The position numbers were made by a program, and so were the translations under genes. Below are positions 1,300-57,915 of a stretch of DNA of 64,000 bases, one piece after another. Below the pieces are notes generated by a model. That model saw only the letters and a list, made by a program, of their open reading frames with translations. It was not told where the DNA came from and did not search any database. The stretch lies in the NCBI GenBank assembly GCA_944391855.1, contig CALXVB010000003.1, positions 1 through 64,000 on the forward strand. The letters are read 5' to 3'. The first letter of the stretch is position 1, and the number at the start of each line of letters is the position of its first letter. Source of the DNA: an uncultured Clostridia bacterium (GTDB lineage: Bacteria > Bacillota > Clostridia > TANB77 > CAG-508).

Positions 1300-1306
1300 A
1301 ATTTAC

Positions 1307-1704: not shown

Positions 1705-1734
1705 AATTTTTGTCCTCCTTTGAAATCCTATAAA

Positions 1735-1965: not shown

Positions 1966-1995
1966 TTAAGCATAAATTGAGAAGGAGAAAATATT

Positions 1996-2745: not shown

Positions 2746-2807
2746 GAAAATTAATTTAATATGTATATTTTGTTATAAATCTAATAAAATAAGAAGGAGA
2801 AAATATA

Positions 2808-4260: not shown

Positions 4261-4404
4261 TTTAAGTTTCCGGTAAGTTTCCATTATACTATTAAAATTT
4301 AGTTGATAAAAATTTAGAATTCTTGAATTCCTTGATAATCAAGGAATTCAAGAATTTATGTAAATTTTAAAAATAACAATTTAAGTTTCCGGTAAATTTC
4401 CATT
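4259..4404. repeat. 27-bp direct repeats flanking an 18-bp perfect hairpin (candidate att remnant / bidirectional terminator)
   Basis: AATTTAAGTTTCCGGTAAGTTTCCATT at 4259-4285 and AATTTAAGTTTCCGGTAAATTTCCATT at 4378-4404 (26/27 identical). Inverted repeat AATTCTTGAATTCCTTGA / TCAAGGAATTCAAGAATT at 4318-4335 / 4339-4356. Confidence 0.7.
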
Positions 4405-4415
4405 CTTCATATTTT

Positions 4416-4607
4416 TTATTTTTTATTTGTAATTATTTCTTCTTCATGTCCATCATCATATACCCAATGAATGTATTTAAAATCTCCACCAATTCTTGTA
4501 TATTCGTTTCCACCATCAATTGAACATGCTCCACATTTACATTTTTTATAATCGTGAACGCTTAAAGATTCAATTATATCATTACATTTTAAACATTTAA
4601 TTTTCAT
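4416..4607 (-). CDS. Small zinc-ribbon protein (CxxC...CxC)
   Basis: 63 aa, MKIKCLKCNDIIESLSVHDYKKCKCGACSIDGG. Four to six Cys in ribbon spacing. SD GGCGAGTGA-like region upstream. Confidence 0.45.
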   Translation of the reverse strand: MKIKCLKCNDIIESLSVHDYKKCKCGACSIDGGNEYTRIGGDFKYIHWVYDDGHEEEIITNKK

Positions 4608-4820
4608 ATTTTCACTCGCCTTTTATAATTTTTATTTAAAGTTATTATACAGAAATTTAAAAAATTTTTCAATAAAATTTATTTACTGCATTCAAACTAC
4701 ATTCAAAAAATGTCGAAGTGCTAGAAAATAAGCAATTTTCAAAAGTAAATTCTCCTCACCTCGACCAGTAATAAAAAACCATACAAGTATTGAATTATCA
4801 ATATTCTGTATGGTTTATTT

Positions 4821-12402: not shown

Positions 12403-12548
12403 TAAATTTCCTCCTAATTATTGACTTATATTATATGTTAGATATTTTATAACAAATTCACAGTTTTTTCAATATAGCTGTCATTTTATATTGCTTTTTG
12501 TAATAAAAAATTATATAATATCTTCAAATTTATAAAATCAATATTAGG

Positions 12549-38904: not shown

Positions 38905-39504
38905 TCTGTATTCTTCCTTTCTTTTAATATTTATTTTCTTATTTTATCCACTTCTAAAATAATATACATAAAATTTTATCACAAATTTTCAAAAAAGTAT
39001 AGACAAAATTTAAAAAATGTTGTATTATTGGTAGAAATTGGAAGGCGGTGTTTGAATTTACTATTCTAGATTTATTTTTCATATTTTTTATTATCCATCT
39101 TTTTATCAGTCTTTATTCAATTTATTTATTTTTCAATAATAAATTATTTCATAATTTACAAGGCGCAAAATTAAATTTAAAATCTAAACATTTTTCTAAT
39201 AAAAACTAAAAGAGGTGAATACTTTATTAGACGTTTACTATTTATTCTTATTTTTTCTTTTTTCTACTGCTATTTAGGCTATAAACTTTTTTCTGATATT
39301 ATTTATTCTAATTCAGTAATAATCCCCTATGGAATACACCCATTTGATATTTGTATTAAAAATCCTGATTTATGGAAATATATTAAAATTACTTTTGTTT
39401 TTACCTATATCTTTTCTTCCTTTATCATTTCTAATTCTTTTTATTTAATCCTGTCTTCTTTAAGTAAAAGAATAAAAGATAAAATTAGTAATTTTCCTGT
39501 AAAA

Positions 39505-41085
<1,581 letters not shown>

Positions 41086-41102: not shown

Positions 41103-41450
41103 ATGAAAAAATCTAAAAATAAATTTATTTTATTCTATTTTATGTTTCTATTATTCATATTTTTAATGTTATTCAATAATATATGTAAATCTGCTCTTTT
41201 TGATAGCCCTCCCGCGTTAGTAGATAAATTGACTAATGCATTTGAAAGCATTAAAAGTTGGCTTATTACTCTTGCTACTCCTGCTGCTGCAGTTGCTGTA
41301 GGTGTTGGAGTTTTTATGAAAAAGTTTAGTTTTGGCGATGAAGAAAGAATTAGAGTTGCCAAAAAGTTAATTAGAGGTTCTTTATTTTCTTATGCTTTTA
41401 TTCTTGCAATTAATTTAATTTTATCTGCAATTAAATCTTTAATAGAATAA
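41103..41450 (+). CDS. VirB2/TrbC-pilin-like small membrane protein
   Basis: 115 aa. Signal-peptide-like N-terminus, then two hydrophobic helices (LITLATPAAAVAVGVGVFM / GSLFSYAFILAINLILSAI) separated by a basic loop. SD AAGGAGG upstream. Confidence 0.45.
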   Translation: MKKSKNKFILFYFMFLLFIFLMLFNNICKSALFDSPPALVDKLTNAFESIKSWLITLATPAAAVAVGVGVFMKKFSFGDEERIRVAKKLIRGSLFSYAFILAINLILSAIKSLIE

Positions 41451-41465
41451 TTATGGAGGTGTACT

Positions 41466-42362
41466 TTGGAAGAAAGTGTTTCAAGTGCTGAACTTACTAA
41501 TATTTCGCAAGTTATTATAGATACTATAAATAATTTATTAAATTCCCTATTTTCTTCTATTGATAATAGTGTTTATGATACTCTAGATGAATTAACTTTT
41601 ATAGGTACAGATATTTTAAATGATTCTTTATTTTCTAAAATATTTGGACATGGTTCAAATAACGGTTTACTAATAATTGCAAATTCTCTGCTTGTTGCAG
41701 TTTGTTTATACTATTGTTTTAAATTAATTTATTCACATTTTACGGGTATTTCTATTGAGAAACCATATCAGTTTGTTTTTAAATTATTAATATTTGCAAT
41801 GTTTATTAATTGTTCTTATTTTATATGTGAATTTTTTATATATTTTACTGATTTAATTTCTTCGTTAATTCGTCAAATTGGTGCTTCTATTTTAAATACA
41901 GAAATTTCTTTTTCTGCATTAGTAGAAAACTTAAATTCAGTTATTACAATTGATTCTACTAATATTAATGTGTTTTCTTTTGATGGAATTTTAAGAAGTA
42001 TTATATCTTTTAGTTTTGTAAGTTTATTATTTACCTATTCTTTAAGATATATAATGATAAAAGTTCTAATATTATTAATGCCTTTTGCTTTTCTCACACT
42101 AATAAACGCTTCAAGCGCATGGTTTTTCAAGGCTTGGCTTAAAATCTTTTTATCTCTTCTTTTTATTCAGCCATTTATTTCACTTATTCTTTTAATATCT
42201 TCTTCCTTAGATTTTTCTTCTTCTGATATTATCTCTAAATTACTATGTATTGGTTCATTATATGCTCTGATAAGAGCTAATTCATATACTCAACATTTTA
42301 TAGGTGGAATTTCCACAGATGTTTCACAAAGTTTTAAATTAATGAAAGGACAAGTTAAATAA
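41466..42362 (+). CDS. VirB6/TrbL-like polytopic membrane protein
   Basis: 298 aa with about 6 TM helices. TTG start 6 nt after GGAGG. Called from position and topology only, with no diagnostic motif. Confidence 0.45.
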   Translation: MEESVSSAELTNISQVIIDTINNLLNSLFSSIDNSVYDTLDELTFIGTDILNDSLFSKIFGHGSNNGLLIIANSLLVAVCLYYCFKLIYSHFTGISIEKPYQFVFKLLIFAMFINCSYFICEFFIYFTDLISSLIRQIGASILNTEISFSALVENLNSVITIDSTNINVFSFDGILRSIISFSFVSLLFTYSLRYIMIKVLILLMPFAFLTLINASSAWFFKAWLKIFLSLLFIQPFISLILLISSSLDFSSSDIISKLLCIGSLYALIRANSYTQHFIGGISTDVSQSFKLMKGQVK

Positions 42363-42364
42363 TT

Positions 42365-42649
42365 ATGAAATTTATTTTTCCACAAAATTATAATTTTGAT
42401 AGTAAATTACTCGGTTTTATTGACTATACTACTGTTATTTTAAATATTTTATGGGGATTATTTATATTTTTAATATCTTATTTTATTATTCCAAATATTA
42501 CTTTTAAAATAAGTTTTTTCATTGTTTTCTTTTTTCCTTTTTTCTTGTTTAGTATTATCGGATTTAATCATGAAAAAATGTTATATATTATTAAATATTT
42601 ATTTAAATACATTTTTTCTCCTAAAATATATTTATATAAAAAATATTAA
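42365..42649 (+). CDS. PrgI/TcpE (VirB3-like) two-TM protein
   Basis: 94 aa. The hairpin of two TM helices and the tail ...FSPKIYLYKKY resemble PrgI/TcpE-family proteins that normally precede virB4. Coupled to the preceding ORF (2-nt gap). Confidence 0.45.
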   Translation: MKFIFPQNYNFDSKLLGFIDYTTVILNILWGLFIFLISYFIIPNITFKISFFIVFFFPFFLFSIIGFNHEKMLYIIKYLFKYIFSPKIYLYKKY

Positions 42650-42786: not shown

Positions 42787-43755
42787 ATGAAATTAGAAAG
42801 TTCAGACTTATCTTCATTATTTTCAAACACATTAATACCAGATATATTCTTTTCAGAATATTTGTCTGAAGCCAGTGGTGACTTCATAAAAGTATATTTA
42901 TATATGTTGTTTTTATCAAAATATGATAAAGATATAAAGATAAATGATTTATCTAAGAAACTAGTATTACCTGTGAAAACTATTCAAGATGCAGTTAAAT
43001 ACTGGGAAGATAAATGTTTAATTACTAAAAAGAATACAGGATATGTTGTCAATAGTATTCAAGAAATAGAACTACATAAATTATATAAACCTAAAACAGC
43101 TTTATCTGCAGAACAATTACAAAAATCTGCTGAAAATCAAAAAAGAGCTAAAGCAATTGACTTTATCAATAATAAATATTTTTCAGGACTTATGCCTACT
43201 ACTTGGTACCCTGAAATTGAACTATGGTTTAAGAAATATGGTTTTGATGAAGAAGTTATGATAGCTTTGTTCGGATATTGTTTTGATATGTCAGCTCTTC
43301 ATAAAAATTATGTTCAGGCAGTAGCAGAAGCTTGGAATAAGAATAATATTAAAAACTTTAACGATTTAGATTTATATTATGAAAAACAAGAAAAACTTAA
43401 GGTTATTGCCAAAACAATATCAAAGAAGCTAGGACTATCTCGTAGTCTTACTCAATATGAATACGCATATATAGAAAAATGGGTTATAGATTATGGTTAT
43501 TCTTTAGATATTATAGAAATAGCTCTAAAGAAAACTACTTCTAAAGCAAATCCAAACTTTGACTATCTAGATAAATTATTAAGTGATTGGCACGATAGAG
43601 GGTTTAAAACTGCTAATGATATTCAAACTTTCTTATCAGATATGAAAGAAAAGAACAAAAATGTTAAACAATTAGAAAAAACTACAGGATATAATAAGTA
43701 TGAACAAAGAACTTATGATAATTTAGATAATTTATATGCAAACTTTAAAAAATAA
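42787..43755 (+). CDS. DnaD-domain replication initiation protein (two DnaD/DnaB_2-like repeats)
   Basis: wHTH-like N-terminus, then WYPEIELWFKKYGFDEEVMIALFGYCF...AVAEAWNKNNI and EKWVIDYGYSLDIIEIALKKT...YLDKLLSDWHDRGFKT. Confidence 0.8.
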   Translation: MKLESSDLSSLFSNTLIPDIFFSEYLSEASGDFIKVYLYMLFLSKYDKDIKINDLSKKLVLPVKTIQDAVKYWEDKCLITKKNTGYVVNSIQEIELHKLYKPKTALSAEQLQKSAENQKRAKAIDFINNKYFSGLMPTTWYPEIELWFKKYGFDEEVMIALFGYCFDMSALHKNYVQAVAEAWNKNNIKNFNDLDLYYEKQEKLKVIAKTISKKLGLSRSLTQYEYAYIEKWVIDYGYSLDIIEIALKKTTSKANPNFDYLDKLLSDWHDRGFKTANDIQTFLSDMKEKNKNVKQLEKTTGYNKYEQRTYDNLDNLYANFKK

Positions 43756-43775: not shown

Positions 43776-44771
43776 GTGGACATAGTTTTAAAAAACATAT
43801 TGGCACAATATGATAAAAAAAGAATTCAGGAAGAATATGCTGCACAAAATAGAAAAACCGAGTTATACAAAAAATATCCTAAACTTCAAAGTATAGATGA
43901 TAAATTAAGTTCTCTTGCAATATCTACTACTAAATCTTTAATTTCAAATAATGATAAAAATTTATTACAAGAACTTAATAATAATATAAATAAATTAAAA
44001 GAGGAAAAAAATAAAATATTAGAAAAACTTAATATTTCTGAAGATTATTTTAAGCCACATTATGAGTGTTCTCTTTGTAAAGATACTGGCTATATAACAA
44101 ACAGTGATTATTCTGTCTCTATGTGTAACTGCTTGAAACAGAAATTATATAATGAACAATATAATAAAGCTAATATTTCTAATTTAGATACACAGAATTT
44201 TGATAATTTTTCTGATTTACTATATTCTGATAAACCAGATGAAGCCAGATATAATACTAAATTGTCTCCTAGAGAAAATATTAATCAAATTAAAGATATT
44301 TGTTTTAAATTTATAGAGAACTTTGATGATAAGAATCAAAAGAATTTATTGTTTACAGGAAATACTGGACTTGGAAAAACTTTTTTATCTAGCGCTATAG
44401 CAAATGAATTATTGAAAAAGGGCAAAAATGTTCTTTATCAAACTGCTTCAGTTATGCTAGATTCAATTATAGATTATAGGTTTGGAAAAACAAATGATTC
44501 AAATATATTAAAGTCTATACTTAATGTTGATTTGTTAATAATAGATGATTTAGGAACAGAGAATCCTAATAATCTTAAATCTTCGGAACTTTTTAATATA
44601 ATTAATACTAGACTATTAAATCAAAATAAAATTACTAAAACAATAATTTCTACTAATTTAAATTTACGTAATCTATATTCTAATTATGATGAACGAATTG
44701 TTTCAAGATTTATTGGAAATTATGATATTTGCTATTTCTTTGGAGAAGATATTAGGTTTAGAAATATATAA
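43776..44771 (+). CDS. Replicative helicase loader (DnaI/DnaC-like, IstB-type AAA+)
   Basis: Zn motif CSLCKDTGY...CNC. Walker A FTGNTGLGKTF. Walker B LLIIDDLGTE. GTG start after GGAGGTG. Confidence 0.85.
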   Translation: MDIVLKNILAQYDKKRIQEEYAAQNRKTELYKKYPKLQSIDDKLSSLAISTTKSLISNNDKNLLQELNNNINKLKEEKNKILEKLNISEDYFKPHYECSLCKDTGYITNSDYSVSMCNCLKQKLYNEQYNKANISNLDTQNFDNFSDLLYSDKPDEARYNTKLSPRENINQIKDICFKFIENFDDKNQKNLLFTGNTGLGKTFLSSAIANELLKKGKNVLYQTASVMLDSIIDYRFGKTNDSNILKSILNVDLLIIDDLGTENPNNLKSSELFNIINTRLLNQNKITKTIISTNLNLRNLYSNYDERIVSRFIGNYDICYFFGEDIRFRNI

Positions 44772-45085: not shown

Positions 45086-47524
45086 CTATTCTTGTTCTTT
45101 TTCTTCCATAGAAATTGTTTCTATACTAACTACTTTTCCTTCATTTGTCCTCATTAAGGTTACACCTTGAGTAGAACGTCCTAATACACTTATGTCTGAA
45201 ACTTTAAGTCTAATTATTGTGCCTGTATCAGTAATTAGCATTACGTCTTCATCATCTGTAGCAATTCTTATTCCAACTAAATTTCCTGTTTTAGATGTTA
45301 CTTTATATGTTATTACACCTTTTCCTCCTCTTGTTTGAACTCTATATTCATCAAGTTCTGTTCTTTTTCCGAATCCATTTTCTGTTATTGCAAGAAGAGT
45401 TGCCTTACTTCCTTGTATTATTGATTCCATTCCTATAACATAGTCTCCGTCGTCTAATCTAATGCCAATAACTCCTTGAGATACTCTTCCCATAGGTCTT
45501 ACATCTTTTTCGTCAAATGTTATACACATTCCTTTATGTGTTACAAGTACTACATTGTCTTCTCCATCAGTGAGTCTTACGTCTATAAGTTCATCTTCAT
45601 CTTTTAAGGTTATTCCTATTAATCCAGTCTTTCTTACAGACATATATTCATTAAGAGAAGTCTTTTTAATTATTCCGTTTTTTGTAGCCATTAACAAATA
45701 TTTTCCTTCTGCAAAGGTTGCAATAGGTATAACTGCAGAAATCTTCTCTCCACCGTCTAACATTAAAAGGTTTACTATTGCAGTACCTTTAGCAGTTCTT
45801 CCTGCTTCTGGTATTTCATATCCTCTTAATCTATATACTTTACCTTTATTACTAAAGAATAATATTGTATCATGTGTAGAACATGTAAATATTTCTTTTA
45901 CGAAATCTTCTTCTCTAGTAGCAATTCCTGTTATTCCTTTTCCTCCTCTTTTTTGGCTTTTATATGTGTCTATTGGCATTCTCTTTACATAGCCAAAGTG
46001 AGTTAGTGCAACAACGCATTGTTCCTCTTTTATTAAATCTTCTACGTCGAATTCTCCTTCTGCTGCAACTATTTTTGTTTTTCTTTCATCTCCATATTTG
46101 TCTTTTATTTCTAATAATTCTTCTTTTATAATGTCATATACAAGCTTATCACTTGCAAGTATTGCTCTTAAATGCTCAATTAATTTCATTAATTCTGCAT
46201 ATTCTTCTTCTATTTTTTCACGTTGCAAACCTGATAATGTTTTTAATCTCATATCTAGGATAGCTTGTGCTTGTATATCAGAAAGTCCAAATCTTTCCAT
46301 TAATCTTTCTTTTGCATCGTCATAAGAATTTCTAATTATTTCAATTACTTCATCTATGTTATCTAATGCAATTTTTAATCCTTCTAATATATGAGCTCTT
46401 GCTAATGCTTTATCTAAATCAAATTGTGTTCTACGAAGAATTACTGTTTTTCTATGGTCTATATAATATTCTAAACATTGTCTCAATGTTAGTATTTTTG
46501 GTTCTCCATTAACTAATGCTAACATTATAACTCCAAAAGTATCTTGCATTTGTGTATATTTGAATAATTGATTTAATATTACTTGAGCATTTACATCTCT
46601 TTTTAGCTCTACAACTATTCTTACTTTTTCTTCTCTATCTGATTCATCTCTTACTTCTGAAATTCCTTCTATTCTTTTTTCTTTTACTAAGTTTGCAATA
46701 TTTTCAATTAATTTTGCTTTATTTACTTGATATGGCAAAGATCTAACAATTATTCTTTGTTTGTTTCCACTCATTTCTTCTATTTCCGCCTCTGCTCTCA
46801 TTGTTATTTTACCTTTACCTGTTGTATATGCTTCTTTTATTCCATCTCTTCCTAAAATTAAACCTTCTGTAGGAAAATCTGGTCCTTTTATAATGCTCAT
46901 TAATTGTTCATCTGTAACATTGTCATCATCAATTATCTTAACTATTCCATTTATAACCTCTGTTAAGTTATGTGGTGGAATGTTTGTTGCCATACCTACG
47001 GCAATTCCTGAAGAACCATTTATTAAAAGTGTAGGTATTTTAGCTGGTAAAACAGTTGGCTCTTGTAATCTATCATCATAGTTTGGCATAAAATCAACTG
47101 TATTTTTCTCTATATCTGTAAGCATTGTTTCTGCTATTTTTGACATTCTTGCTTCTGTATACCTCATAGCTGCTGGTGCATCACCATCAACAGAACCAAA
47201 GTTTCCATGTCCATCAATTAGTGGATATCTCATAGAGAAGTCTTGTGCCATTCTTACCATTGCATCATAAACCGATGCATCCCCATGTGGATGGTATCTT
47301 CCTAAAACTGAACCTACTGTATTAGCACTTTTTCTGTAAGGTTTATCAGAAGTTATTCCATCTTCATACATGGCATATAGGATTCTTCTATGTACTGGTT
47401 TTAAACCATCTCTTACATCTGGAAGTGCACGAGAAACAATAACGCTCATAGCATAATCGATATATGATGTTTTCATTTCTGTTTCAATATTTCTTTCGAT
47501 AATTTTTCCTTCATTTTCTTCCAT
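45086..47524 (-). CDS. gyrA: DNA gyrase subunit A
   Basis: 812 aa. [25 protein letters not shown], active-site [10 protein letters not shown], and a C-terminal beta-pinwheel. Confidence 0.97.
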
Positions 47525-47569
47525 TTTATTTTTTCCGTCCTTTCCAAAATGTTCAATAACTACTCTTGT

Positions 47570-47599
47570 ATTATACTATAAATACAGCAAAATTTGCAA
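47570..47599 (-). promoter_or_regulatory. Candidate stand-alone gyrA promoter
   Basis: Minus-strand TTGCAA (47599-47594), 18 nt, TATAAT (47575-47570). Confidence 0.4.
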
Positions 47600-47640
47600 G
47601 TGAAAAAGGCTAATTCTTTTTGAAAAAATAGCCTTTTTTG
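47600..47640 (-). terminator. Terminator of the inserted T4SS-like block II operon
   Basis: AAAAGGCTA / TAGCCTTTT stem (47604-47612 / 47629-47637) with T-runs on both strands. Confidence 0.6.
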
Positions 47641-47715
47641 ATAAAAAATTCTTAATATTTTTTTATTATTTTTTATTTTAAATTTTTAATATTTTTTATT
47701 TAATAAATTCTATAT

Positions 47716-48435
47716 TTATGTTAATAAATTAGCTAACTCTCTTTGTTCATCTGTTAAATTAAAATCATGATTATTATTTTTAATTAAACTATGTAGATTT
47801 TCTATAATGCGAGCTTCTTTTATTGTATTTTCTAAAGGCATTAATTCTTCTAATTTTTCTTGTATTTTTTCATATTCTCTCTCCATACCATCAAAATCTT
47901 TATTTTCAAAATATTCTTTCCAATTGCTTTCATATTTTGCTAGTTTTTCTACTCCATCTATTTGCTCTGTAAATTCATTTTCTATCCTATCACTTACACT
48001 ATTTAATATTGCATCTTTACCACTACTAATTATGTTTGCAATATTACCACTTATTAGTCCTGAAGAACTTGTCTTGTCTAATACTTTATCTAATACATTT
48101 GAAATTCCATCTATTATTCCTCCATTTTTTACAGCATCTCTCGCTTGAGAAATACTATCAAAGTCTCCTGTAAATATTCCAATAACGCTTTTTCCTAAAT
48201 TAATTGCACTATTTATTGCTGTGTCTATTCCTTCTTTAAATCCACCTTGAAAAAAAGCATCTTTTATTTCTACTATCCCCTCTTCTATAAAATCAGGTAA
48301 AACCATTCTAAGTCCTATATCTAAAGCAGAATTAACAGCTTTTCCTATATTAGATTGTAAAAAATTATTTTGTTCTTGTGCAAGATTCTCTTCATTTAAA
48401 TTATTATTTAAATCAACATTATTTTCTAATTCCAT
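47716..48435 (-). CDS. Hypothetical soluble helical protein (last gene of block II)
   Basis: 239 aa. No TM helix or signal peptide. Gly/Ile/Ser-rich middle (GIIDGISNVLDKVLDKTSSSGLISGNIANIISSGKDAI). SD AAGGAGA upstream. Confidence 0.45.
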   Translation of the reverse strand: MELENNVDLNNNLNEENLAQEQNNFLQSNIGKAVNSALDIGLRMVLPDFIEEGIVEIKDAFFQGGFKEGIDTAINSAINLGKSVIGIFTGDFDSISQARDAVKNGGIIDGISNVLDKVLDKTSSSGLISGNIANIISSGKDAILNSVSDRIENEFTEQIDGVEKLAKYESNWKEYFENKDFDGMEREYEKIQEKLEELMPLENTIKEARIIENLHSLIKNNNHDFNLTDEQRELANLLT

Positions 48436-48459
48436 AATTTTTCTCCTTATTTTTTATTT

Positions 48460-49782
48460 TTAAATATTATTTAATTTATTATTAATATCTATATATTCTT
48501 TCTTTAATTTTTCATCTAATAAATTATATTTATTATTTTTATTGATTAATTTATTATATATTTTTCTATAATTTAATTTTCCTATTACATTAAATTCACT
48601 AAATATATTTTTTAATAAATTAAAATTAATTGATTCAGAATTATATTTATTAAATATTATTTTTATTTTATTAATTTTAATATTTAATTTATTTATATAT
48701 ATATCTAATAATTTTATTGATTTATTTATTTCCAATAAATTGGTATCTGAAATAAATAGACAAAAATCACATATCTCTATTATATTTTTTATATAATTTG
48801 TTTTTTTATTATAATTAGTATCAATTATTATAAGCTCATACATTTCTTTTAAAAAATTTATATTTTCAATTATTTTATTTAAAAATATATTTTCATTATT
48901 TTCTTCTATCTTTTCTCTTATTTTTTCTTTTTTTAAAATTAATAAATCTATTTTTTTATTAATTTTAATTATATTAAAATATTCAAAAATATTATTAAAA
49001 TTATTTTTTGAATATTTATTATTTATTTCATAATTTATTTTTTCTATATAAGTATTTGCATTTTTTGATATGTTTTTAAGACCTAAAATTGTGTTAATAG
49101 AATTATTAAAAAAATCTGAACCAATAATTAAAATCTTATTATTTTTATAAGCATTAATTTTAGCTAAATTTATAGATATAATTGTTTTTCCAACTCCTGG
49201 AGGTCCTGTTATAGAAAATGTTTTATTTTTTATTTTATTTTGAAATGATTTTTTTGAATTTAATTTAATTTTTTTTGAATTTAATATTTTAATTAAATGA
49301 TTATCTATTATATTTTTTGCTGTTTTTTTTATTAATAATATTTTTTTATTTTTATTTTTTTCGTTTTTTTCTTGTTTAATTTTATTAACTATATTTTTAT
49401 TTTCATAATTATTATCTATATTATTATCTATTATTTCTATTATTTTTTGTGTATTAATTTTGTCATTTTTATCTAAATAAATAATTTTATATATATTTTT
49501 ATAATTTAAATATTTTTCTATTTCTTTTTCATTATTTTCTATAATAATTATTATTTTAATACTTTTATTAATTATATAAATTTGTTTTATTAAATCTTCT
49601 ATTTTTATTTCACCTTGTAATATATTATTTATTATTATATAATCAACTTCATTTTTTTCTTCTAGAATTTCAATTATTCCTTCTTTATATTGAATATCAT
49701 TTAAAATAATATTTATATTCTTTTCTTTTTTTAATTCATTATTTATAGATTCATTTCCAATGGCAGTTATTATTTTTTTCAT
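48460..49782 (-). CDS. Receiver-like N-domain fused to a ParA/MinD/CpaE(TadZ)-like ATPase
   Basis: 440 aa. N-terminus MKKIITAIGNESINNELKK...DYIIINNILQGEIKIEDLI (pseudo-receiver layout). P-loop FSITGPPGVGKTIISINLA. Walker B-like YELIIIDTN. Extremely Asn/Ile/Lys-rich. Confidence 0.55.
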   Translation of the reverse strand: MKKIITAIGNESINNELKKEKNINIILNDIQYKEGIIEILEEKNEVDYIIINNILQGEIKIEDLIKQIYIINKSIKIIIIIENNEKEIEKYLNYKNIYKIIYLDKNDKINTQKIIEIIDNNIDNNYENKNIVNKIKQEKNEKNKNKKILLIKKTAKNIIDNHLIKILNSKKIKLNSKKSFQNKIKNKTFSITGPPGVGKTIISINLAKINAYKNNKILIIGSDFFNNSINTILGLKNISKNANTYIEKINYEINNKYSKNNFNNIFEYFNIIKINKKIDLLILKKEKIREKIEENNENIFLNKIIENINFLKEMYELIIIDTNYNKKTNYIKNIIEICDFCLFISDTNLLEINKSIKLLDIYINKLNIKINKIKIIFNKYNSESINFNLLKNIFSEFNVIGKLNYRKIYNKLINKNNKYNLLDEKLKKEYIDINNKLNNI

Positions 49783-49800
49783 ATTTATTCCTTTTTAGTT

Positions 49801-51654
49801 TTAATTAAATTTAATTTTGTTTTCTATAATTTCTTTTTCAAAATCTGCTGCATATATTTTATTTAATATATGCTCATCTCCTATGAATGTTAAGCACTCT
49901 CCTCTTTTCAAAGATTTTATTTCTATTTTTTCTTTTTCAGATAAATTAGTAAACTTTTCTAATATTTTTATATTTTCTTCTTCTAAAGAAAAAAATGTTT
50001 TTATACTAGAATTATTTAAAATACTTTTTCCATATACTCCATCTTCTAAGCTGAAAATATCTGATATGTCCTGAGTAACCGCAACTCCACTCCCTCCATA
50101 CTTTCTAATAGTTTTAAATATTTTATATATAAAACTGGCAACGTCTTTATTAGAAGTAACACCTATTAGTCTCCATATTTCATCTAAATATATTGCTTTT
50201 TTTATTTTTCTATCTTTTTTTATTTTATCCCAAAATAATTCAGTAAATAAATACATTCCATATTTTAAATTTTCTTCTCCTAATTCATATACGTCTGCTA
50301 CAATTAATTTATTATTTAATTCTACATTTGTATAATTATTAAAAAAGTTTAAAGAACCTTTTATAAATGGAATTAATTTTGTTTTAAATATTTTTGTTTT
50401 TTCGTCTTTATCTAATATATTATAAAAGTCTTGTAAAATTGGCATGTCTTTACTTTCTTTAAACATTATATTGTTTATTTCATTTTCCAAATCATTTTCT
50501 TTATATTTATATAAACTTTTATCATCAAAAGTAATACCTTTTGTAGAATATAATTCTATTAATTTTTCTTCTAAAATTGCTTTTTCCTCTTCATTTATTT
50601 TTCCAAATATAAGATTAAAAAAACCTATTAATTTACTAATTTTATTTGCTAAATATCCTTGTTCATCATCTTCAATACTTTCTTTTCTTATATCAAACAC
50701 ATTTATGTATGTATCTGAGCCTGGTCCTATTTTTAAAAGAGTTCCATTTAAATTTTCACACAAATTATTGTATTCTCTTTCAGGATCTATTATGTATTGC
50801 TCTATTCCTAGTATTCTATATCTCAAAATTAATAATTTTGTATAAAAAGATTTCCCAGCACCAGAAGTTCCAAAAATGCACATATTCGCATTTTTATATT
50901 TTTGTGTATTGTATCTATCCACAAATATCAAAGAATTATTATATATATTTATTCCAATAAATATTCCTGTATCATCAAAAATGGCAGAAGATATAAATGG
51001 GTATGTACATACAAGACCACTAGTTAATACATTTCGCTTTGAAACTTCTTTTAGTAATTTATTATTTTCCATTAAAGGTAAACATGCTCTATATGCTTGT
51101 TCTTGCCTAAAATACGCTCTTCTTGTATGCAATCCTTTACTTTCTATTATTCCTTCTATTTTATTTAAAATATTTTCTATTTCATTTAAATCTTGAGAAT
51201 ATATACATACATAAATATATAAATAATATAAATCTTCGTTATTTATTTGTAATTCTTTTCTAATGTATTTTGCATCATTATATGTAAAAGCTGCTATATC
51301 TATGTCTTGCCTATTCTGATTATTTCCTTTCAAATCCGCACCAACATTACCTATATGATATGTAAGTTCTCTTATTGCTTTATAACTATCTTGTTTTTCA
51401 TAAAAAATTGAAATATTTATATCTATATTTGTATCTATTAATGTTTTTAAAAGTAATTCATTTTGTTCTCTAAAATAATTTACTATTAATATTGATGAAA
51501 AATAATTATTATCTATTTCAATATATTTTGGATTAGATAAATCAATACATGATGGTGCTAAAAAATCATTATCTGAAAATGTCCCTTCTAAAAAATTTAA
51601 TTTTTCTTTTTTATTTTTTTCTATTTTTCTTTTCAATTTAAAAATATTTTTCAT
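49801..51654 (-). CDS. VirB4/TrsE-type type IV secretion ATPase
   Basis: 617 aa. Walker A CIFGTSGAGKSFYTK, then IIDPEREY, Walker B AIYLDEIWRL, then GVAVTQDISD. The N-terminal YIEIDNNYFSSILIVNYF segment is typical of VirB4 N-domains. Confidence 0.75.
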   Translation of the reverse strand: MKNIFKLKRKIEKNKKEKLNFLEGTFSDNDFLAPSCIDLSNPKYIEIDNNYFSSILIVNYFREQNELLLKTLIDTNIDINISIFYEKQDSYKAIRELTYHIGNVGADLKGNNQNRQDIDIAAFTYNDAKYIRKELQINNEDLYYLYIYVCIYSQDLNEIENILNKIEGIIESKGLHTRRAYFRQEQAYRACLPLMENNKLLKEVSKRNVLTSGLVCTYPFISSAIFDDTGIFIGINIYNNSLIFVDRYNTQKYKNANMCIFGTSGAGKSFYTKLLILRYRILGIEQYIIDPEREYNNLCENLNGTLLKIGPGSDTYINVFDIRKESIEDDEQGYLANKISKLIGFFNLIFGKINEEEKAILEEKLIELYSTKGITFDDKSLYKYKENDLENEINNIMFKESKDMPILQDFYNILDKDEKTKIFKTKLIPFIKGSLNFFNNYTNVELNNKLIVADVYELGEENLKYGMYLFTELFWDKIKKDRKIKKAIYLDEIWRLIGVTSNKDVASFIYKIFKTIRKYGGSGVAVTQDISDIFSLEDGVYGKSILNNSSIKTFFSLEEENIKILEKFTNLSEKEKIEIKSLKRGECLTFIGDEHILNKIYAADFEKEIIENKIKFN

Positions 51655-51796
51655 TTTATTTTTCCTCTCTAAAGTTAAAGAATTATTTTTTATTTGTTTT
51701 TATAATTAATTTAAATAATTATTTTATTTTTGATTTTTATCCTTAATTTTTATTTGTTTTTATTGTTGATTTTCTCGTTTAAGTAATAATTAATTA

Positions 51797-52399
51797 TTAT
51801 TTATTATTAGTATAAATTCTTGTATTAAAAAAAGAAAATAATATATGTTTTATTTGTTTTTTATCATTTATATCTGTAGCAATATTTCCGCATCTTGATA
51901 ATCCATCTTTAATTTTAAAATATTTATTATTTAAATTTTCTGTTGCATTAGTTTGAATATCTATAATTTCATTGTTTTTATTAATATATTCTAAAATTAT
52001 ATAATAATTTTTTGATGACGATTTTTTATTATTATTTAATTCTTTTATTTTTTCTATATATTTTTTTGATATTTCTTGGATGTTTTTTTCTTCTTGAATT
52101 AAATGATTATTTATTTGAGAAAAATGATTAGATAAATCTACTTTATTACTTTGTATTAATATTTGAAAATTAAAATCACATGTTTTTAAAAAAATTTTAT
52201 ATGAATTTAAAATAGCTTCTTTTTCTAAATCTGATTTTAAATTAAAATTAATCGGATTTATTTTAATTATTTTTAAATATCTATTATCCTTTGTTTTAAT
52301 TATTCCATTTTCTAATATTTCTTCTATTTTTAACCATTCCTGGCTAGAATTAATATTGTTTTTTTTATTTATTTTAATTATATATTCCTCCTTTCTCAA
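51797..52399 (-). CDS. Hypothetical protein resembling a stand-alone VirB4 N-terminal domain; start codon uncertain (TTG 52399 or ATT 52378)
   Basis: 200 aa with no Met anywhere. EWLKIEEILENGIIKTKDNRYLKIIKINPINFNLKSDLEKEAILNSYKIFLKTCDFNFQILIQS follows the pattern I associate with the N-termini of ConE/Orf16-type VirB4 proteins. A perfect AAGGAGG lies inside the annotated 5' end. Confidence 0.4.
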   Translation of the reverse strand: MRKEEYIIKINKKNNINSSQEWLKIEEILENGIIKTKDNRYLKIIKINPINFNLKSDLEKEAILNSYKIFLKTCDFNFQILIQSNKVDLSNHFSQINNHLIQEEKNIQEISKKYIEKIKELNNNKKSSSKNYYIILEYINKNNEIIDIQTNATENLNNKYFKIKDGLSRCGNIATDINDKKQIKHILFSFFNTRIYTNNK

Positions 52400-52613
52400 T
52401 TAATTAATAAAAATAAATAATTAAATATATATTTATATATTATATTTCTATTAAAATTAATTTTTTTATTAATATTTTATTTATATTTAATTAAATAAAT
52501 TATTTTTTGAATATTTAAAGATTAAAATTATTTTGATATTAATTTTTGAAAAAATTATTAAATAATATAATATAAGATAATATGATTAAAATCAATTAAT
52601 TTTTATTTTCTTT

Positions 52614-52642
52614 TTTATACCATATTTCTATCAACTTTTCAA
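52614..52642 (-). promoter_or_regulatory. Candidate promoter of block II
   Basis: Minus-strand TTGAAA (52642-52637), 17 nt, TGG-TATAAA (52622-52614, extended -10 type). About 215 nt upstream of the 200-aa ORF. Confidence 0.3.
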
Positions 52643-52740
52643 GAAAAATCGTAATCCTTTTTTCGACATTTTTTGCACAGTATTTTGTTAATTTTTTATT
52701 AATATTCTATTATTATTAATTTATTTTAATTTTTGAAAAA

Positions 52741-52795
52741 ATATATAAAAAATAGGTAAATAATTAATATTTAATTTATTAATTATTTTACCTAT
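52741..52795 (-). terminator. gyrB terminator
   Basis: Imperfect 15-16-bp A/T-rich hairpin ATAGGTAAATAATTAA / AATTATTTTACCTAT (52752-52795). A T-run follows on the minus strand. Confidence 0.5.
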
Positions 52796-52819
52796 TATTT
52801 TTACAAATTATTATATGTC

Positions 52820-54769
<1,950 letters not shown>

Positions 54770-55018
54770 CTATCTGCTAGCTCTTTTAGCAATAGTACTC
54801 GAAGAAATATTAGTAATATACCCTAAAATCTTATCATTTTTTTCTAAAATTATCAAAGATTTTTTATTTTCTTCTGATACATCTATTATATTACCACTAA
54901 TTTTTAAATTTTGTAATACTTCTTCTAATTTTTTCTTTTTTTCTAATGATTCTATATCTAAAATTGATATAATATTTTCTGAATTTATGACTACATCTTT
55001 CCCTATATGAACATACAT
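54770..55018 (-). CDS. remB: DUF370 protein (RemB/YaaB-like)
   Basis: 82 aa. MYVHIGKDVVINSENIISILDIE is the DUF370 signature. It occupies the conserved slot between recF and gyrB. TAATG overlap with the recF stop. Confidence 0.8.
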   Translation of the reverse strand: MYVHIGKDVVINSENIISILDIESLEKKKKLEEVLQNLKISGNIIDVSEENKKSLIILEKNDKILGYITNISSSTIAKRASR

Positions 55019-56082
55019 TATACAACTTCTCCTTTTTTTATATTATATAAATTATATTCTAAATTAGGCAAATCTATTTTTTCAGTTCCTGTTAAAATAA
55101 CTTGAGTATCTTTTATATTATTTAAAAAATTCTTTCTTCTCTCTTCATCTAATTCAGACATAAAATCATCTAATAATAATATTGGATATTCTCCTATTTC
55201 TTCATAGACGACATTAAGTTCTGAAAGTTTTAAAGATAAAATTACTGTTCTATTTTGCCCTTGTGAACCATAAATATTTACTTCTTTACCATTAATATAT
55301 ATCATAAAATCATCTCTATGTACACCCTTTGTAGTAAAACCTTTTATTATATCTAATTTTCTTCTTTCTTTTAATAATTTTAAATAACTTTCTTTGTCTT
55401 CACAATTTGATATATAATCAATTTTTAATTCTTCTTTATTTTCAGTAATTTCTCCATGAATTTTATTAATTTTCTTTGAGATTTTTTCTATAAATTCATT
55501 TCTATAATTAAATATTTTTTCTCCATAATCCGCTAATTTTTCATCCCAGATTTCTAACATTTCTTCTGGTTTATTTTCTTCTTTTATTTGTCTTAAATAA
55601 TTATTTCTTTGTTCAATAGTTTTTAAATACATATTTAAGTTGTATACATAGTTTGGTCTTAGTTGTCCTATCATCATATCTAAAAATCTTCTTCTATTTG
55701 CGGGACCATCTTTTAATATATTTATATCGTCTGGAGTAAATATAACAATATTTATATTTCCCAAAAGTTCACTAAGTTTTTTAATCTTTATACCATTTAA
55801 ATATATTTGCTTTCTATCCCCTATTTCTATCTTAATTTTTCCGTCTCTATCTTTTTTTTGATAATATATTTCAACTATTGAATTACTTTCATTAAATTTT
55901 ATCATTTCTTTTTCTTTAGACGTTCTAAAAGATTTTCCGAAACTACATAAAAATATGGATTCCAAGATATTAGTTTTTCCTTGTGCATTATTTCCATATA
56001 TAATGTTTATATTTTTATTTAAATTTAAATCTAATTGTTCATAATTTCTAAAATTTTGAAGTTTAATTTTCTCTATGTACAT
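55018..56082 (-). CDS. recF: DNA replication and repair protein RecF
   Basis: I place the start at ATG 56082-56080 (MYIEKIKLQNFRNYE...), not the track start 56157. Walker A YGNNAQGKTNILE. Signature and Walker B at ILLLDDFMSELD. TAATG overlap with the upstream ORF. Confidence 0.9.
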   Translation of the reverse strand: MYIEKIKLQNFRNYEQLDLNLNKNINIIYGNNAQGKTNILESIFLCSFGKSFRTSKEKEMIKFNESNSIVEIYYQKKDRDGKIKIEIGDRKQIYLNGIKIKKLSELLGNINIVIFTPDDINILKDGPANRRRFLDMMIGQLRPNYVYNLNMYLKTIEQRNNYLRQIKEENKPEEMLEIWDEKLADYGEKIFNYRNEFIEKISKKINKIHGEITENKEELKIDYISNCEDKESYLKLLKERRKLDIIKGFTTKGVHRDDFMIYINGKEVNIYGSQGQNRTVILSLKLSELNVVYEEIGEYPILLLDDFMSELDEERRKNFLNNIKDTQVILTGTEKIDLPNLEYNLYNIKKGEVV

Positions 56083-56450
56083 TAGGATTCCTTTTCTTTC
56101 TTTTTTATCATTGCATTTATTATTATTTCTGTAATTAATAAAAATACAATAACACATGTAATAATACTTATTATAATATTTGTATAATTTAAAACACTTT
56201 GTGCAATCATATCAGGTTTTCCAAAATTTAAACTCCAAGGAATAATACAAGCCATAATTATTATAGATATTAAAATTAAAATATAAAAAAATATAAAGAT
56301 TCTTTTTTCCTTAATACTTTTAGATTTTTTCTTTATATAATACAATCTTAATAGAAAAACAGACACGATTACAATACAAATAATTAATAATATTAAATTA
56401 TATCTTGGTACATAATATTTCATAACACTTGGAGTTAAATTAAATTCCAT
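56082..56450 (-). CDS. Small 4-TM membrane protein occupying the slot where yaaA (S4-domain protein) normally lies
   Basis: About 122 aa from ATG 56450 (MEFNLTPSV...). Four hydrophobic helices. Its stop overlaps the recF ATG. A perfect DnaA box TGTGGATAA at 56498-56506 lies inside an inverted repeat just upstream. Confidence 0.5.
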   Translation of the reverse strand: MEFNLTPSVMKYYVPRYNLILLIICIVIVSVFLLRLYYIKKKSKSIKEKRIFIFFYILILISIIIMACIIPWSLNFGKPDMIAQSVLNYTNIIISIITCVIVFLLITEIIINAMIKKKEKES

Positions 56451-56565
56451 ATTTATTAACACTTCCTTTTGTTTTTACCACAAGTTATTAACATTTTTGT
56501 GGATAACTTGTTGGTATTTTCATCATTATTTTTAATAATTCATTCTACGTTGGAAAAAGAATTGA

Positions 56566-56790
56566 TTTTTGGCTAGGCGTACTTTATTAAAAATTTATGA
56601 GTCGTACTTTGTGTACGCCCACTTAAATTTTTAATGAAGTGCAAACATTTATTATTCCAACACTTTTTTAATTTTAAAATAATTGATGGTTTGACTAGGC
56701 AAACGAGCAAGAAAACCGGAAGCGTACTTGGTGTACGCTGAGGATTTTCGCATGCGAAGTTTAACAACGTCAAAGCGCAATTATTTTAAA
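56566..56790. repeat. Two tandem ~120-nt GC-enriched structured units between dnaN and the membrane-protein gene (candidate ncRNA/attenuator or protein-binding array)
   Basis: Unit 1: GGCTAGG 56571, CGTAC-TTTGT-GTACG 56603-56617, plus long-range GGCGTAC 56576-56582 / GTACGCC 56613-56619. Unit 2: GACTAGG 56693, GCGTAC-TTGGT-GTACGC 56722-56738, then the 12-bp palindrome TTCGCATGCGAA 56747-56758. Line 56701 counts 48% G+C. Confidence 0.4.
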
Positions 56791-56796
56791 AGGATT

Positions 56797-57915
56797 CTAT
56801 TCTTTCATTCTAATTGGAAGAACCATATAAATATAATCTCCACCCTCTTCTACAGGTCTTATTATACATGGTGATATGCTTGTACCAAAATCAATAAATA
56901 CTTCTTGATCATCTATATTTCTTAATGCATCTAGAAAATATTTAGGATTAAATCCTGCTTCTAAATTTTTTCCTTCTGTTGTAACATACATTTCTTCTTT
57001 TGCATCACCTGTTTGATTTGTACAAGAAATTGTTACTTTTCCTATATCTACATTTACTTTTACAGGATATTTTTTCTCTTTTTCTATACTAGATGATGAA
57101 ATAAGGCTAATTCTTTCAAAACAATTTTGTATTGTATTTTTGTCCACGCGTATTCTTGTTTCCCAATTTTCTGGAATTACACTTGAATAATTCAAAAATT
57201 CTCCATCTAATAATCTAGTAACTATTTTACAATTTTCCATTTCAAATAATGCTTGATTTTTAGCAACTCCTATTTTTATAGGTTCATAAGAATCTATCAT
57301 TATCTTATTTATTTCATTTAAAGTTCTTCCAGGAATTACTGCTGAAAAATCATTTATCTTATTTTGTAAGAATTTACTTTTCCAAGCTAATCTAAAACCA
57401 TCCACTGCAACTACATTTAATTTATTATTTTTTATTTCAAATAAACAACCTGTAAATATTGGTCTATTTTCTTCAGTACTTACTGCAAATATTGTTTTTC
57501 TAATCATATCTTTTAATGAATTTTGTTCCATTTCGATAGAATTTTCTATATTTATTTGTGGAAGTTCTGGAAATTCGTCTGGATTCATTGTTGCAAGTTT
57601 ATATAAAGAACCTTCACATTCTATAACTAATAAATTTTTTTCATCTAAAGTAATTTTTATTTCAGAATCTGGTAATCTTCTAATAATTTCACTAAACATT
57701 ATTGCATTAACTACTGTTGCACCTTGCTCTTTTACTTCACATTTAATTATATATTCTATACCAATTTCTAAATCATATGTTGTAAATTTAACTTCATTAT
57801 CATTTGTTTGAATTAATATTCCTTCCAGTATAGGCATTGTTGTTTTTGTAGCTACCGCTTTTGTTACGGAATTAAGTGCTTTAAGGATATTATCCTTTTC
57901 ACAAATAAGTTTCAT
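56797..57915 (-). CDS. dnaN: DNA polymerase III beta sliding clamp
   Basis: 372 aa. MKLICEKDNILKALNSVTKAVATKTTMPILEGILI... The three-domain length and the position after dnaA both fit. Confidence 0.95.
   Translation of the reverse strand: MKLICEKDNILKALNSVTKAVATKTTMPILEGILIQTNDNEVKFTTYDLEIGIEYIIKCEVKEQGATVVNAIMFSEIIRRLPDSEIKITLDEKNLLVIECEGSLYKLATMNPDEFPELPQINIENSIEMEQNSLKDMIRKTIFAVSTEENRPIFTGCLFEIKNNKLNVVAVDGFRLAWKSKFLQNKINDFSAVIPGRTLNEINKIMIDSYEPIKIGVAKNQALFEMENCKIVTRLLDGEFLNYSSVIPENWETRIRVDKNTIQNCFERISLISSSSIEKEKKYPVKVNVDIGKVTISCTNQTGDAKEEMYVTTEGKNLEAGFNPKYFLDALRNIDDQEVFIDFGTSISPCIIRPVEEGGDYIYMVLPIRMKE

Follow-up and report, generated by a model that had tools for sequence, protein, structure and literature searches.

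Genes between gyrB and gyrA

In most Firmicutes, the genes dnaA-dnaN-recF-gyrB-gyrA form an uninterrupted block. In the DNA analysed here (positions 1 to 64,000 of contig CALXVB010000003.1 of an uncultured Clostridia bacterium of the order TANB77), the usual adjacency of gyrB and gyrA is interrupted by a cassette of four genes. This 64-kb stretch is referred to as the window; our analysis of the organism is confined to it, and its open reading frames (ORFs) were scanned against Pfam and NCBIfam profiles. Both gyrase genes are on the minus strand and are 5.1 kb apart. The gene gyrB (52820-54733, 637-aa ORF) is the upstream border of the cassette, and gyrA (45086-47524, 812-aa ORF) is the downstream border. 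The cassette, also located on the minus strand, harbours genes for the N-terminal domain of the type IV secretion ATPase VirB4 as a separate protein (VirB4N, 51797-52399), the C-terminal VirB4 ATPase (VirB4C, 49801-51654), a TadZ-like ATPase of the ParA/MinD family (48460-49782), and a helical protein which we call ORF239 (47716-48435). An A/T spacer of 142 nt (51655-51796, minus strand, 12.0% G+C), which contains the Shine-Dalgarno sequence of VirB4C at its end, separates VirB4N from VirB4C. The spacer between gyrB and VirB4N (52400-52819, minus strand) has a G+C content of 8.8%, the lowest intergenic value of the window. The four minus-strand ORFs, the gyrase borders and the coordinates of the two spacers agree with a preliminary description of the locus, which proposed that a foreign or very fast-evolving segment was inserted between the gyrase genes.

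The cassette is one of two arms of a gene set, the second arm being located beyond gyrA, past dnaD and dnaC. The order of the genes is coupling protein, pilin, VirB6-like, VirB3-like, dnaD and dnaC on the plus strand, and facing them (orf80), gyrA, ORF239, TadZ-like, VirB4C, VirB4N and gyrB on the minus strand.

A VirB4 ATPase encoded as two proteins

VirB4C (617-aa ORF) matches the VirB4 C-terminal domain of the PDB entry 4AG5 over residues 223-609 (E 7.7e-42), the Pfam family P-loop_TraG (5.7e-22) and also DUF87. Its match to the NCBIfam profile NF045971 (CD1110 family) has an E-value of 1.4e-84, with the best stretch at profile positions 183-533. The Walker A motif GTSGAGKS is found at position 262 and the Walker B motif AIYLDE at position 487; they are intact in 116 and 118, respectively, of 118 related loci. 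VirB4N (200-aa ORF, with a real length of probably about 195-200 aa) aligns to positions 2-161 of the same profile and to positions 87-260 of NF045975, and its orthologues match the TraC-like Pfam family PF26593. Since VirB4N and VirB4C cover successive parts of NF045971, VirB4 is encoded here as two proteins. The NF045971 score of 284.8 bits is under the equivalog cut-off of 325 bits, and there is no single polypeptide of about 750-900 aa.

The split is inherited and is no damage. In all of the more than 60 loci examined, the two parts are separate ORFs, with a gap of -11 to 1118 nt and in either frame relation. The Clostridium perfringens plasmid pJFP838A encodes a 312-aa VirB4N homologue (E 2e-5) followed by a 641-aa DUF87 ATPase, and on the Carnobacterium plasmid pWNCR64 a TrsD/TraD protein is followed by a 656-aa DUF87 protein, the similarity of VirB4N to the Carnobacterium TrsD being marginal (E 0.075). 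Because a split VirB4 is also found on plasmids, we do not consider the split as a sign of decay.

The start codon of VirB4N is likely ATA at 52381 or ATT at 52378, just after the Shine-Dalgarno sequence AGGAGG (52392-52387). The TTG chosen by the ORF finder is an unlikely start, because it overlaps with the Shine-Dalgarno sequence. In the sub-clade to which the window belongs (related loci L001-L006, L008, L010, L011, L023 and L028), ATA or ATT is present where remoter relatives have ATG downstream of the same AGGAGG. An example is the sequence ...GGAGGAAAATATAAAA in L011 versus ...GGAGGAAAATGAAAAC in L012.

The TadZ-like ATPase and ORF239

The third gene of the cassette is a 440-aa ORF with similarity to the CbiA family (1.5e-8). 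Its AlphaFold2 model (pLDDT 72) has two domains, and a Foldseek search with this model revealed as the best PDB match 3FKQ, the TadZ protein of Eubacterium rectale (E 1.4e-10 across both domains), followed by ParA/MinD proteins. The orthologue in L085 matches Response_reg and AAA_31. According to the model, the protein is thus predicted to be a TadZ-like two-domain ATPase of the ParA/MinD family, with a receiver-like N-domain and an ATPase domain. Its P-loop, GPPGVGKT, is nearer to the BY-kinase/Mrp type. The gene is absent in L055 and highly divergent in other relatives. None of the Tad components CpaF, TadB/C or Flp-type pilin is encoded in the cassette of the window.

The last gene encodes the 239-aa protein ORF239, for which no match was found in Pfam, NCBIfam, PADLOC, PDB sequences or plasmids. 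None of its 2722 homologues has a Pfam domain, and its AlphaFold2 model is helical and of low confidence (pLDDT 43), too poor for a fold search. A homologue of ORF239 (tblastn 7.6e-9 to the window) ends the VirB4N-VirB4C-TadZ-CpaF-TadB cassette of L117, which is located in another chromosomal context. Since this homologue closes the cassette of a sister lineage elsewhere in the chromosome, ORF239 can be regarded as a true cassette member.

The second arm

The first gene of the second arm (39226-41085, plus strand) encodes a VirD4-type coupling protein (T4CP), which is probably 619 aa long when read from an ATT at 39226; the mechanical ORF call begins at the ATG at 39505. All four proteins analysed, the one of the window and three orthologues, match TrwB_AAD_bind with 25.7-40.2 bits (cut-off 20.5). 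Two orthologues exceed the cut-off of TraG-D_C, and SXT_TraD was matched with 4.2e-8. The sole PDB match was IcmO/DotL (0.009), and the Walker A motif is GTIGTGKT. The frame is open for about 100 codons upstream of the ATG (39178-39505), a region coding for two hydrophobic/transmembrane helices. The ATT at 39226 is located eight nt after a GAGGTG Shine-Dalgarno sequence. An ATT at a distance of 7-8 nt from a Shine-Dalgarno sequence is also present in L028 and L070, and in L050 and L094 the gene opens on an in-frame ATT and lacks a canonical start. Judged from this recurrence, the ATT looks like a conserved initiation codon, and an N-terminal membrane anchor would probably be present only if translation begins at ATT 39226.

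Downstream of it, on the same strand, is a gene for a VirB2-like pilin (41103-41450) of 115 aa with a signal-like segment and two hydrophobic helices, which matches the Pfam family T4SS_pilin (PF18895, 1.9e-4). It is followed by two plus-strand genes with tentative assignments. The VirB6-like polytopic membrane protein (41466-42362) has 298 aa with 5-6 hydrophobic helices and is homologous to the product of a 298-aa gene upstream of VirB3/VirB4 in L085 (1.2e-14). Homologues are found about 3 kb upstream of a fused VirB4 in 14 of 34 high-G+C loci, and one of 12 orthologues weakly matches TrbL/VirB6 (0.0095). The VirB3-like small membrane protein (42365-42649) has 94 aa with two hydrophobic helices and is homologous to a 107-aa gene product of L085 encoded just upstream of VirB4N (tblastn 1.2e-5), which in turn weakly matches PrgI (0.0014). 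Both candidates are encoded 5-10 kb away from VirB4 and on the opposite strand.

The arm is followed, still on the plus strand, by a dnaD-domain gene (42787-43755; DnaB_2, 2.3e-28) and a gene for a dnaC-like helicase loader (43776-44771; PRK06835, 4.5e-102), each of which keeps its place in relatives. The whole arrangement from the coupling protein gene via the pilin, VirB6-like and VirB3-like genes to dnaD and dnaC is retained at the same place in the related genomes.

Predicted promoters and terminator-like hairpins

Two promoter-like sites are located in the intergenic regions of the cassette, both on the minus strand and at the positions given in the preliminary description. The predicted cassette promoter (52614-52669) comprises a ATGTCGAAA box (52669-52661), the -35 sequence TTGAAA (52642-52637) and, at a spacing of 17 nt, the extended -10 sequence TGgTATAAA (52622-52614). 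The predicted gyrA promoter (47570-47599) has the composition TTGCAA-18-TATAAT. As a class, promoter-like hexamer pairs occur at chance frequency in this DNA (91 observed vs 93 expected). At the cassette promoter, the box, the -35 sequence and TGnTATA are kept in all seven close relatives, and the rest of the spacer is unalignable. Likewise, both hexamers of the gyrA promoter are invariant in 7/7 close relatives, and the spacer sequence varies. Thus, the weight of the two sites comes from their conservation in unalignable spacers and not from the hexamer match itself. Based on this conservation, the cassette and gyrA are each predicted to have a conserved promoter of their own, in line with the earlier proposal of an independent gyrA promoter. 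The ATGTCGAA(A) box, located some 20 nt before the cassette -35 sequence, is invariant in seven close relatives and has no second copy in the 64-kb window; it may be a candidate operator for some regulator.

The two hairpins with T-runs noticed before do fold in silico. The terminator-like hairpin 3' of gyrB (52741-52795, minus strand; minimum free energy -14.9 kcal/mol) was found just in the window and L001 and not in remoter relatives. The terminator-like hairpin 3' of ORF239 (47600-47640, minus strand; -13.1 kcal/mol) is kept in the window, L001, L002 and L004.

Distribution and vertical inheritance

A scan with one genome per species revealed at least 329 relatives, the best 80 of which were examined as genome loci. 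All 80 are uncultured Clostridia or Clostridium bins, including a circular genome of 1.57 Mb, Clostridium sp. CAG:567 and CAG:575, and the identity to the window is 80-99% for gyrB in these 80 loci and 79-99% for gyrA in the related loci. The order gyrB-VirB4N-VirB4C-(TadZ-like)-ORF239-gyrA was found in every sufficiently long locus, namely in the 80 genomes and in about 35 metagenome contigs of the same clade, which reach down to 62% identity for VirB4C and 79% for gyrA. In three remoter contigs (gyrB 68-75% identity), the split VirB4 is still located 2-3 kb downstream of gyrB. An empty gyrB-gyrA junction was seen neither in the 80 genomes nor in the roughly 35 metagenome loci of the same clade, all of which were recovered via a cassette gene, a sampling that cannot reveal outgroups with an empty junction. 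In the preliminary description, a gene order shared by the wider clade was considered to speak for ancient conserved synteny rather than an insertion. Since the order is common to all related loci, ancient conserved synteny is what we conclude.

In close relatives, the synonymous divergence (dS) of the cassette equals that of the flanking genes. Pairwise distances of gyrase and VirB4C are strongly correlated (Mantel r = 0.87, reached by 0 of 999 permutations), the corresponding value for gyrB vs gyrA being 0.90. The dN/dS ratios are 0.05-0.11 for VirB4C, 0.09-0.34 for VirB4N, 0.12-0.26 for ORF239 and 0.30-0.56 for the TadZ-like gene. In the flanking genes they are 0.01-0.05 (gyrase) and 0.08-0.16 (recF; the value for L007 is an alignment artefact and was ignored). 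In addition, the 440-codon ORF remains open in DNA of 11% G+C, where stop codons are expected by chance about once per 8 codons. Together, the comparisons indicate that the segment is under purifying selection and vertically inherited across the clade.

Some relatives have additional genes in the cassette. L018 has an insertion (2617-4774) downstream of VirB4C and before the TadZ-like gene, which consists of a gene for a MurT-like ligase and an ORF of 266 aa, and in L082-L084 spmA/spmB-like, SLH, acetyltransferase and M20 peptidase genes are located between gyrB and VirB4N. Because of these insertions, the junctions of the cassette can be described as accepting housekeeping genes.

Base composition of the cassette

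In sliding windows of 500 nt, the G+C content is 0.09-0.14 over 48250-49750 and 51500-52750, 0.30-0.35 in gyrA and gyrB, and 0.22-0.28 in the flanks. The G+C values counted by hand for single lines in the preliminary description (8.3, 11.7, 16.7, 26.7 and 43.3%) are exact. A strong trough is present over the TadZ-like gene, over VirB4N and over both spacers. It does not extend to VirB4C and ORF239, which are within the range of the host. The extreme values are restricted to the TadZ-like gene (11.0% G+C; 3.6% at third codon positions, GC3), VirB4N (15.1%) and the two spacers, whereas VirB4C (21.6%) and ORF239 (26.0%) resemble recF (21.2%), the dnaC-like gene (22.6%), remB and dnaN. The GC3 of VirB4C (9.9%) and ORF239 (8.7%) is in or just under the range of the neighbours (dnaN 9.1%, gyrB 11.0%), the TadZ-like gene being the sole outlier.

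At the position of the TadZ-like gene, most relatives also have 9-17% G+C, and a few lineages have about 25%. This low G+C content persists in relatives with saturated synonymous sites. In some relatives, 2-5 kb of ORF-free DNA with 6-12% G+C (4-15% per 500-nt window) is present between the TadZ-like gene and ORF239 (L045, 12911-17526; likewise L062, L067, L071, L056 and L057). These stretches have no ORF of 70 aa or more and consist of A/T low-complexity sequence with short imperfect tandem repeats. An rRNA operon or other RNA genes were ruled out as their content, since nothing was found in Rfam. No remnant of CpaF or TadB was detected in them by tblastn. The stretches may be decayed Tad genes, CpaF and TadB filling this place in L117.

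We infer that the AT-richness reflects mutational AT drift where the constraint on the protein is weakest, and not foreignness. Mutational bias is favoured because a foreign segment would have ameliorated over such divergence, and a persistent floor fits AT pressure.

Origin and sister cassettes

VirB4C was compared with a library clustered at 50% identity. The proteins of its own tier (at least 44% identity) have about 600 aa, and those of the next tier (about 35%) are full-length VirB4 proteins of about 770-1100 aa. The nearest fused VirB4 (849 aa, 47% identity) is the sole fused protein of the near tier. The element encoding it also harbours genes for a relaxase, MobC, a pilin, a coupling protein, an M23 peptidase and a 430-aa receiver/CbiA protein. 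High-G+C contigs with a fused VirB4 of 38-41% identity resemble ordinary conjugative elements. A rough neighbour-joining tree unites the split forms in one clade, in which the gyrB-linked ones are together, and places the relaxase-linked fused form as their sister. Among 72,556 PLSDB plasmids, the best VirB4 had 35% identity and none was above this value; no counterpart of ORF239 was found on these plasmids.

In two sister lineages the cassette is joined to Tad genes. The order in L085 is VirB6-like, VirB3-like, VirB4N, VirB4C, TadZ-like, CpaB, CpaE, CpaF, TadB, TadC and pilins. In the rumen lineage L115/L117, the cassette comes after mrdA (PBP2)-minC and comprises VirB4N, VirB4C, TadZ-like, CpaF, TadB and the ORF239 homologue. 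Judged from these relationships, the gene set probably originates from a conjugative element, acquired anciently and then fixed, and its ancestral module is likely to have contained parts of both type IV secretion and Tad systems. With respect to the rumen lineage, we also observed that in L117 (11-1126) the cassette stands where minD would be expected after minC; the contig ends there.

The preliminary proposal of a foreign or very fast-evolving segment is correct in two respects: the type IV secretion genes point to a mobile-element ancestry, and the TadZ-like gene evolves fast. The recent, lineage-specific insertion implied by it is contradicted by the presence of the same genes in every long-enough related locus, by the equal dS of cassette and flanks, by the Mantel correlation and by the lack of attachment repeats.

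Interpretation of the gene set

Based on these observations, we consider it likely that the cassette belongs, as one of two arms, to a conjugation-type type IV secretion gene set of Gram-positive character, which was acquired long ago, became fixed in the chromosome and has since been inherited vertically. We propose that the eight proteins would assemble into a working, envelope-spanning type IV secretion machine, in which VirB4N would dock the VirB4 ATPase hexamer to the VirB3/VirB6-like membrane parts and the substrate, either DNA or protein, would be brought by the coupling protein. The TadZ-like protein could be responsible for positioning or scaffolding, by analogy with TadZ in Tad pili, and ORF239 would be an accessory part. 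The ancestor would then have been a conjugative element which also carried Tad-pilus genes. The non-canonical starts (ATT of the coupling protein throughout the clade, ATA/ATT of VirB4N in the sub-clade of the window) may keep the protein levels low.

Several points weigh against this interpretation. A relaxase, an integrase, a VirB8-like protein and a cell-wall hydrolase were not found among the scanned ORFs of the 64-kb window, and the machine may be incomplete. The names VirB6-like and VirB3-like are based on weak profile matches, position and topology, and the pilin reaches 18-26 bits in all four orthologues analysed, just below the Pfam cut-off of 26.6 bits. VirB4N in the sub-clade of the window and the coupling protein have no canonical start codon, which may indicate weak expression or the onset of decay. 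Constraint on the TadZ-like gene is relaxed, and at least one species lacks it. Nei-Gojobori dN/dS values are approximate in such biased sequence, in which the comparison with the flanking genes alone is robust. The attribution of the AT-richness to mutational drift is inferential. Finally, metagenome bins make up nearly all of the genomes; the pattern recurs, however, in many independent assemblies, including the circular 1.57-Mb genome.

A recent horizontal insertion, with a foreign ultra-AT-rich island arriving at the gyrB-gyrA junction of this lineage, is extremely improbable. The G+C trough is real, the genes are of the mobile-element type, and the segment has its own promoter- and terminator-like signals. 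However, the cassette is at the same place in every sampled relative, its dS is equal to that of the flanks and it has diverged together with gyrase. No attachment-type repeats were found around the segment, the flanks showing low-complexity A/T repeats only, no recombinase or integrase is encoded among the scanned ORFs of the window, and none of the 72,556 plasmids harbours a relative above 35% identity. The trough itself is confined to the least constrained parts. Alternatively, the genes could be what is left of an old, decaying conjugative element that had integrated here and is no longer functional, and they could have persisted by chance or because of their position between essential genes. 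This would be consistent with the lack of a relaxase or integrase gene nearby, with a VirB4 in two pieces and with odd start codons, as well as with a TadZ-like gene of 11% G+C that reaches a dN/dS of 0.56 and is missing in L055, and with the kilobases of ORF-free DNA in some relatives. We nevertheless regard a remnant as quite improbable, because dN/dS is far below 1, even for the TadZ-like gene, over divergences at which dS is saturated, the catalytic motifs are conserved in 116-118 of 118 loci, and the ORFs are open despite the high frequency of stop codons expected by chance. Furthermore, the split is common to plasmid systems, and L028 and L070, at least, have the same ATT start in the coupling protein gene, which is unlike scattered damage.

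Two other alternatives assign a different role to the conserved genes. The VirB4/TadZ-like arm could now serve a Tad-type pilus encoded elsewhere in the genome, in its assembly, positioning or pilus-linked DNA uptake, instead of a type IV channel. The junction of the cassette with Tad genes in L085 and L117, the TadZ fold of the 440-aa protein and the Tad-like pilus cluster reported for 122 of 129 TANB77 species (PMC11680825) are in line with such a role. On the other hand, the presence of a pilus cluster in the organism of the window is assumed, and the conservation of the coupling protein, the VirB2-like pilin and the VirB6/VirB3-like genes next door suggests a type IV channel. Moreover, we know of no Tad system that uses VirB4. 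On balance, a role in a Tad pilus is unlikely. Still less can be said for a recruitment of the cassette to chromosome biology, that is, to replication-coupled DNA translocation or segregation, which would explain its place among dnaA-dnaN-recF-gyrB-gyrA-dnaD-dnaC. The site near replication genes is kept throughout the clade, VirB4 belongs to the HerA/FtsK-related ATPases (DUF87), its partner is of the ParA/MinD family, and in the sister lineage the cassette adjoins minC, another cell-cycle locus. The other partners, however, are membrane-channel, pilin-type and coupling proteins, and no DNA-binding or segregation-specific domain is present. In addition, the position is not essential, since it differs between the lineages (gyrB vs minC). 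Such a role is therefore very improbable.

For the type IV secretion gene set preferred here, a more far-reaching proposal can be formulated: a domesticated, relaxase-less type IV secretion/Tad hybrid, embedded among the replication genes, on which the whole clade of gut Clostridia with reduced genomes would depend, could serve the exchange of DNA or protein with other cells and be kept at low dose by the ATT/ATA starts. Epibiotic Saccharibacteria, which depend on their type IV secretion/Tad machine, offer an analogy for such dependence. We find this proposal rather doubtful. If true, dependence on a hybrid machine would help to explain the resistance of these bacteria to cultivation, and gene flow could be chromosome-wide without mobile elements.

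Anti-phage defence and a phage origin were considered and rejected. For anti-phage defence, PADLOC gave generic ATPase matches only for VirB4C (mad8, DndH) and none for the other three ORFs, and the locus is invariant. For a phage origin, PHROGs gave weak and generic matches only. A self-transmissible integrative and conjugative element (ICE) or plasmid would be compatible with the presence of a T4CP and VirB4, but no relaxase or integrase was found in the scanned ORFs of the window and the distribution is not patchy.

Comparison with known systems

The individual parts belong to known families (VirB4, VirD4, TadZ and VirB2/3/6-like proteins). With the Gram-positive conjugative type IV secretion systems (pIP501 Tra, pSK41/pGO1 Trs, pCF10 Prg, pCW3 Tcp and ICEBs1 Con; NCBIfam families CD1110/CD1115) the set has in common the fold of the VirB4 C-terminal part, the VirD4-type coupling protein and small membrane proteins of the PrgI/VirB3-like, TrbL/VirB6-like and VirB2-like types. 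Some plasmids likewise encode a separate N-domain-like protein before VirB4 (pJFP838A; TrsD/TraD plus DUF87 on pWNCR64). In contrast to these systems, the set of the window is fixed at one chromosomal site throughout the clade, with gyrA and dnaD/dnaC placed between its two convergent arms. Relaxase, integrase and hydrolase genes were not found nearby, and the TadZ-like partner and ORF239 have no plasmid counterpart.

Type IV secretion systems have been domesticated for DNA uptake (ComB of Helicobacter pylori), DNA secretion (genetic island of Neisseria gonorrhoeae) and DNA import (archaeal Ced). These systems resemble the present set, which would likewise be derived from conjugation and kept for the cell's own use, with no self-transfer genes at the immediate locus. 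ComB works without a coupling protein, whereas the set of the window keeps one. The presence of a coupling protein argues against pure uptake of the ComB type. In addition, those examples are found at the level of species or genus, whereas the present set spans at least 80 species-level genomes and at least 329 relatives.

The similarity to the Tad pilus (TadZ/CpaE, 3FKQ) lies in the two-domain fold and in the cassettes of L085 and L117, which run on into Tad genes. It differs in that CpaF, TadB/C and a Flp-type pilin are missing in the cassette of the window, the partner ATPase is VirB4, and the P-loop is nearer to BY-kinase/Mrp. A conserved Tad-like pilus cluster was described in 122 of 129 species of the uncultured gut order TANB77 (PMC11680825).

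The genes gyrB and gyrA are naturally unlinked in Escherichia coli and Salmonella (PMC8359277). There, gyrA has its own promoter apart from gyrB, as predicted for the window; unlike in these bacteria, the genes of the window are in the ancestral Firmicutes order, split by one conserved cassette and not scattered.

Our literature searches revealed no paper dealing with a VirB4 gene at the gyrB-gyrA junction, with type IV secretion in the order TANB77 or with the combination of VirB4 and TadZ/CpaF in Firmicutes. What we did not find described is the fixation at one site across a large clade, the interleaving with gyrB, gyrA and dnaD/dnaC, and the VirB4-TadZ(-CpaF-TadB)-ORF239 cassette.

The analysis of this locus is important for several reasons. 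What looked like an alien island in the best-conserved block of a Firmicutes chromosome turns out to be a clade-defining, selected gene set. Further, a very low G+C content in an AT-biased genome need not signal foreign DNA; here it tracks weak protein constraint. A conserved, predicted envelope machine can be named for a large, uncultured group of gut Clostridia with small genomes and almost no known cell biology, and in sister lineages type IV secretion ATPases and Tad-pilus genes are tied together in one cassette, a combination not found described. Last but not least, the genes are concrete targets for metatranscriptomics, proteomics and structure prediction.

Other features of the window

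Upstream of gyrB, the minus strand harbours remB (54770-55018), recF (55018-56157) and dnaN (56797-57915). In many Firmicutes, a small S4-like gene (yaaA) is located at the position between recF and dnaN. In the window, the gap between these genes (56158-56796, 639 nt) contains no ORF retained by the greedy caller. The only ORFs there are short overlapping ones (56573-56780) and a hydrophobic one of 126 aa which overlaps the start of recF (56082-56462).

The region 10696-19994 codes for a non-ribosomal peptide synthetase of 2481 aa, which is notable for a genome of about 1.5 Mb. The enzyme has two modules and ends in a reductase domain (C-A-T-C-A-T-R type). Before its gene, on the other strand, is that of a stand-alone AMP-binding enzyme (10696-12402); genes for a 7TM histidine kinase and an HD-domain response regulator come after it. 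At the left end of the window (496-4260), a patch with a mobile- or defence-like appearance contains genes for a protein with a phage replisome-organiser N-domain (496-1299) and an HTH protein. Two overlapping ORFs of this patch, with the domains Schlafen AlbA_2 (2808-3443) and HATPase_c_4 (3388-4260), look like one gene split by a frameshift.

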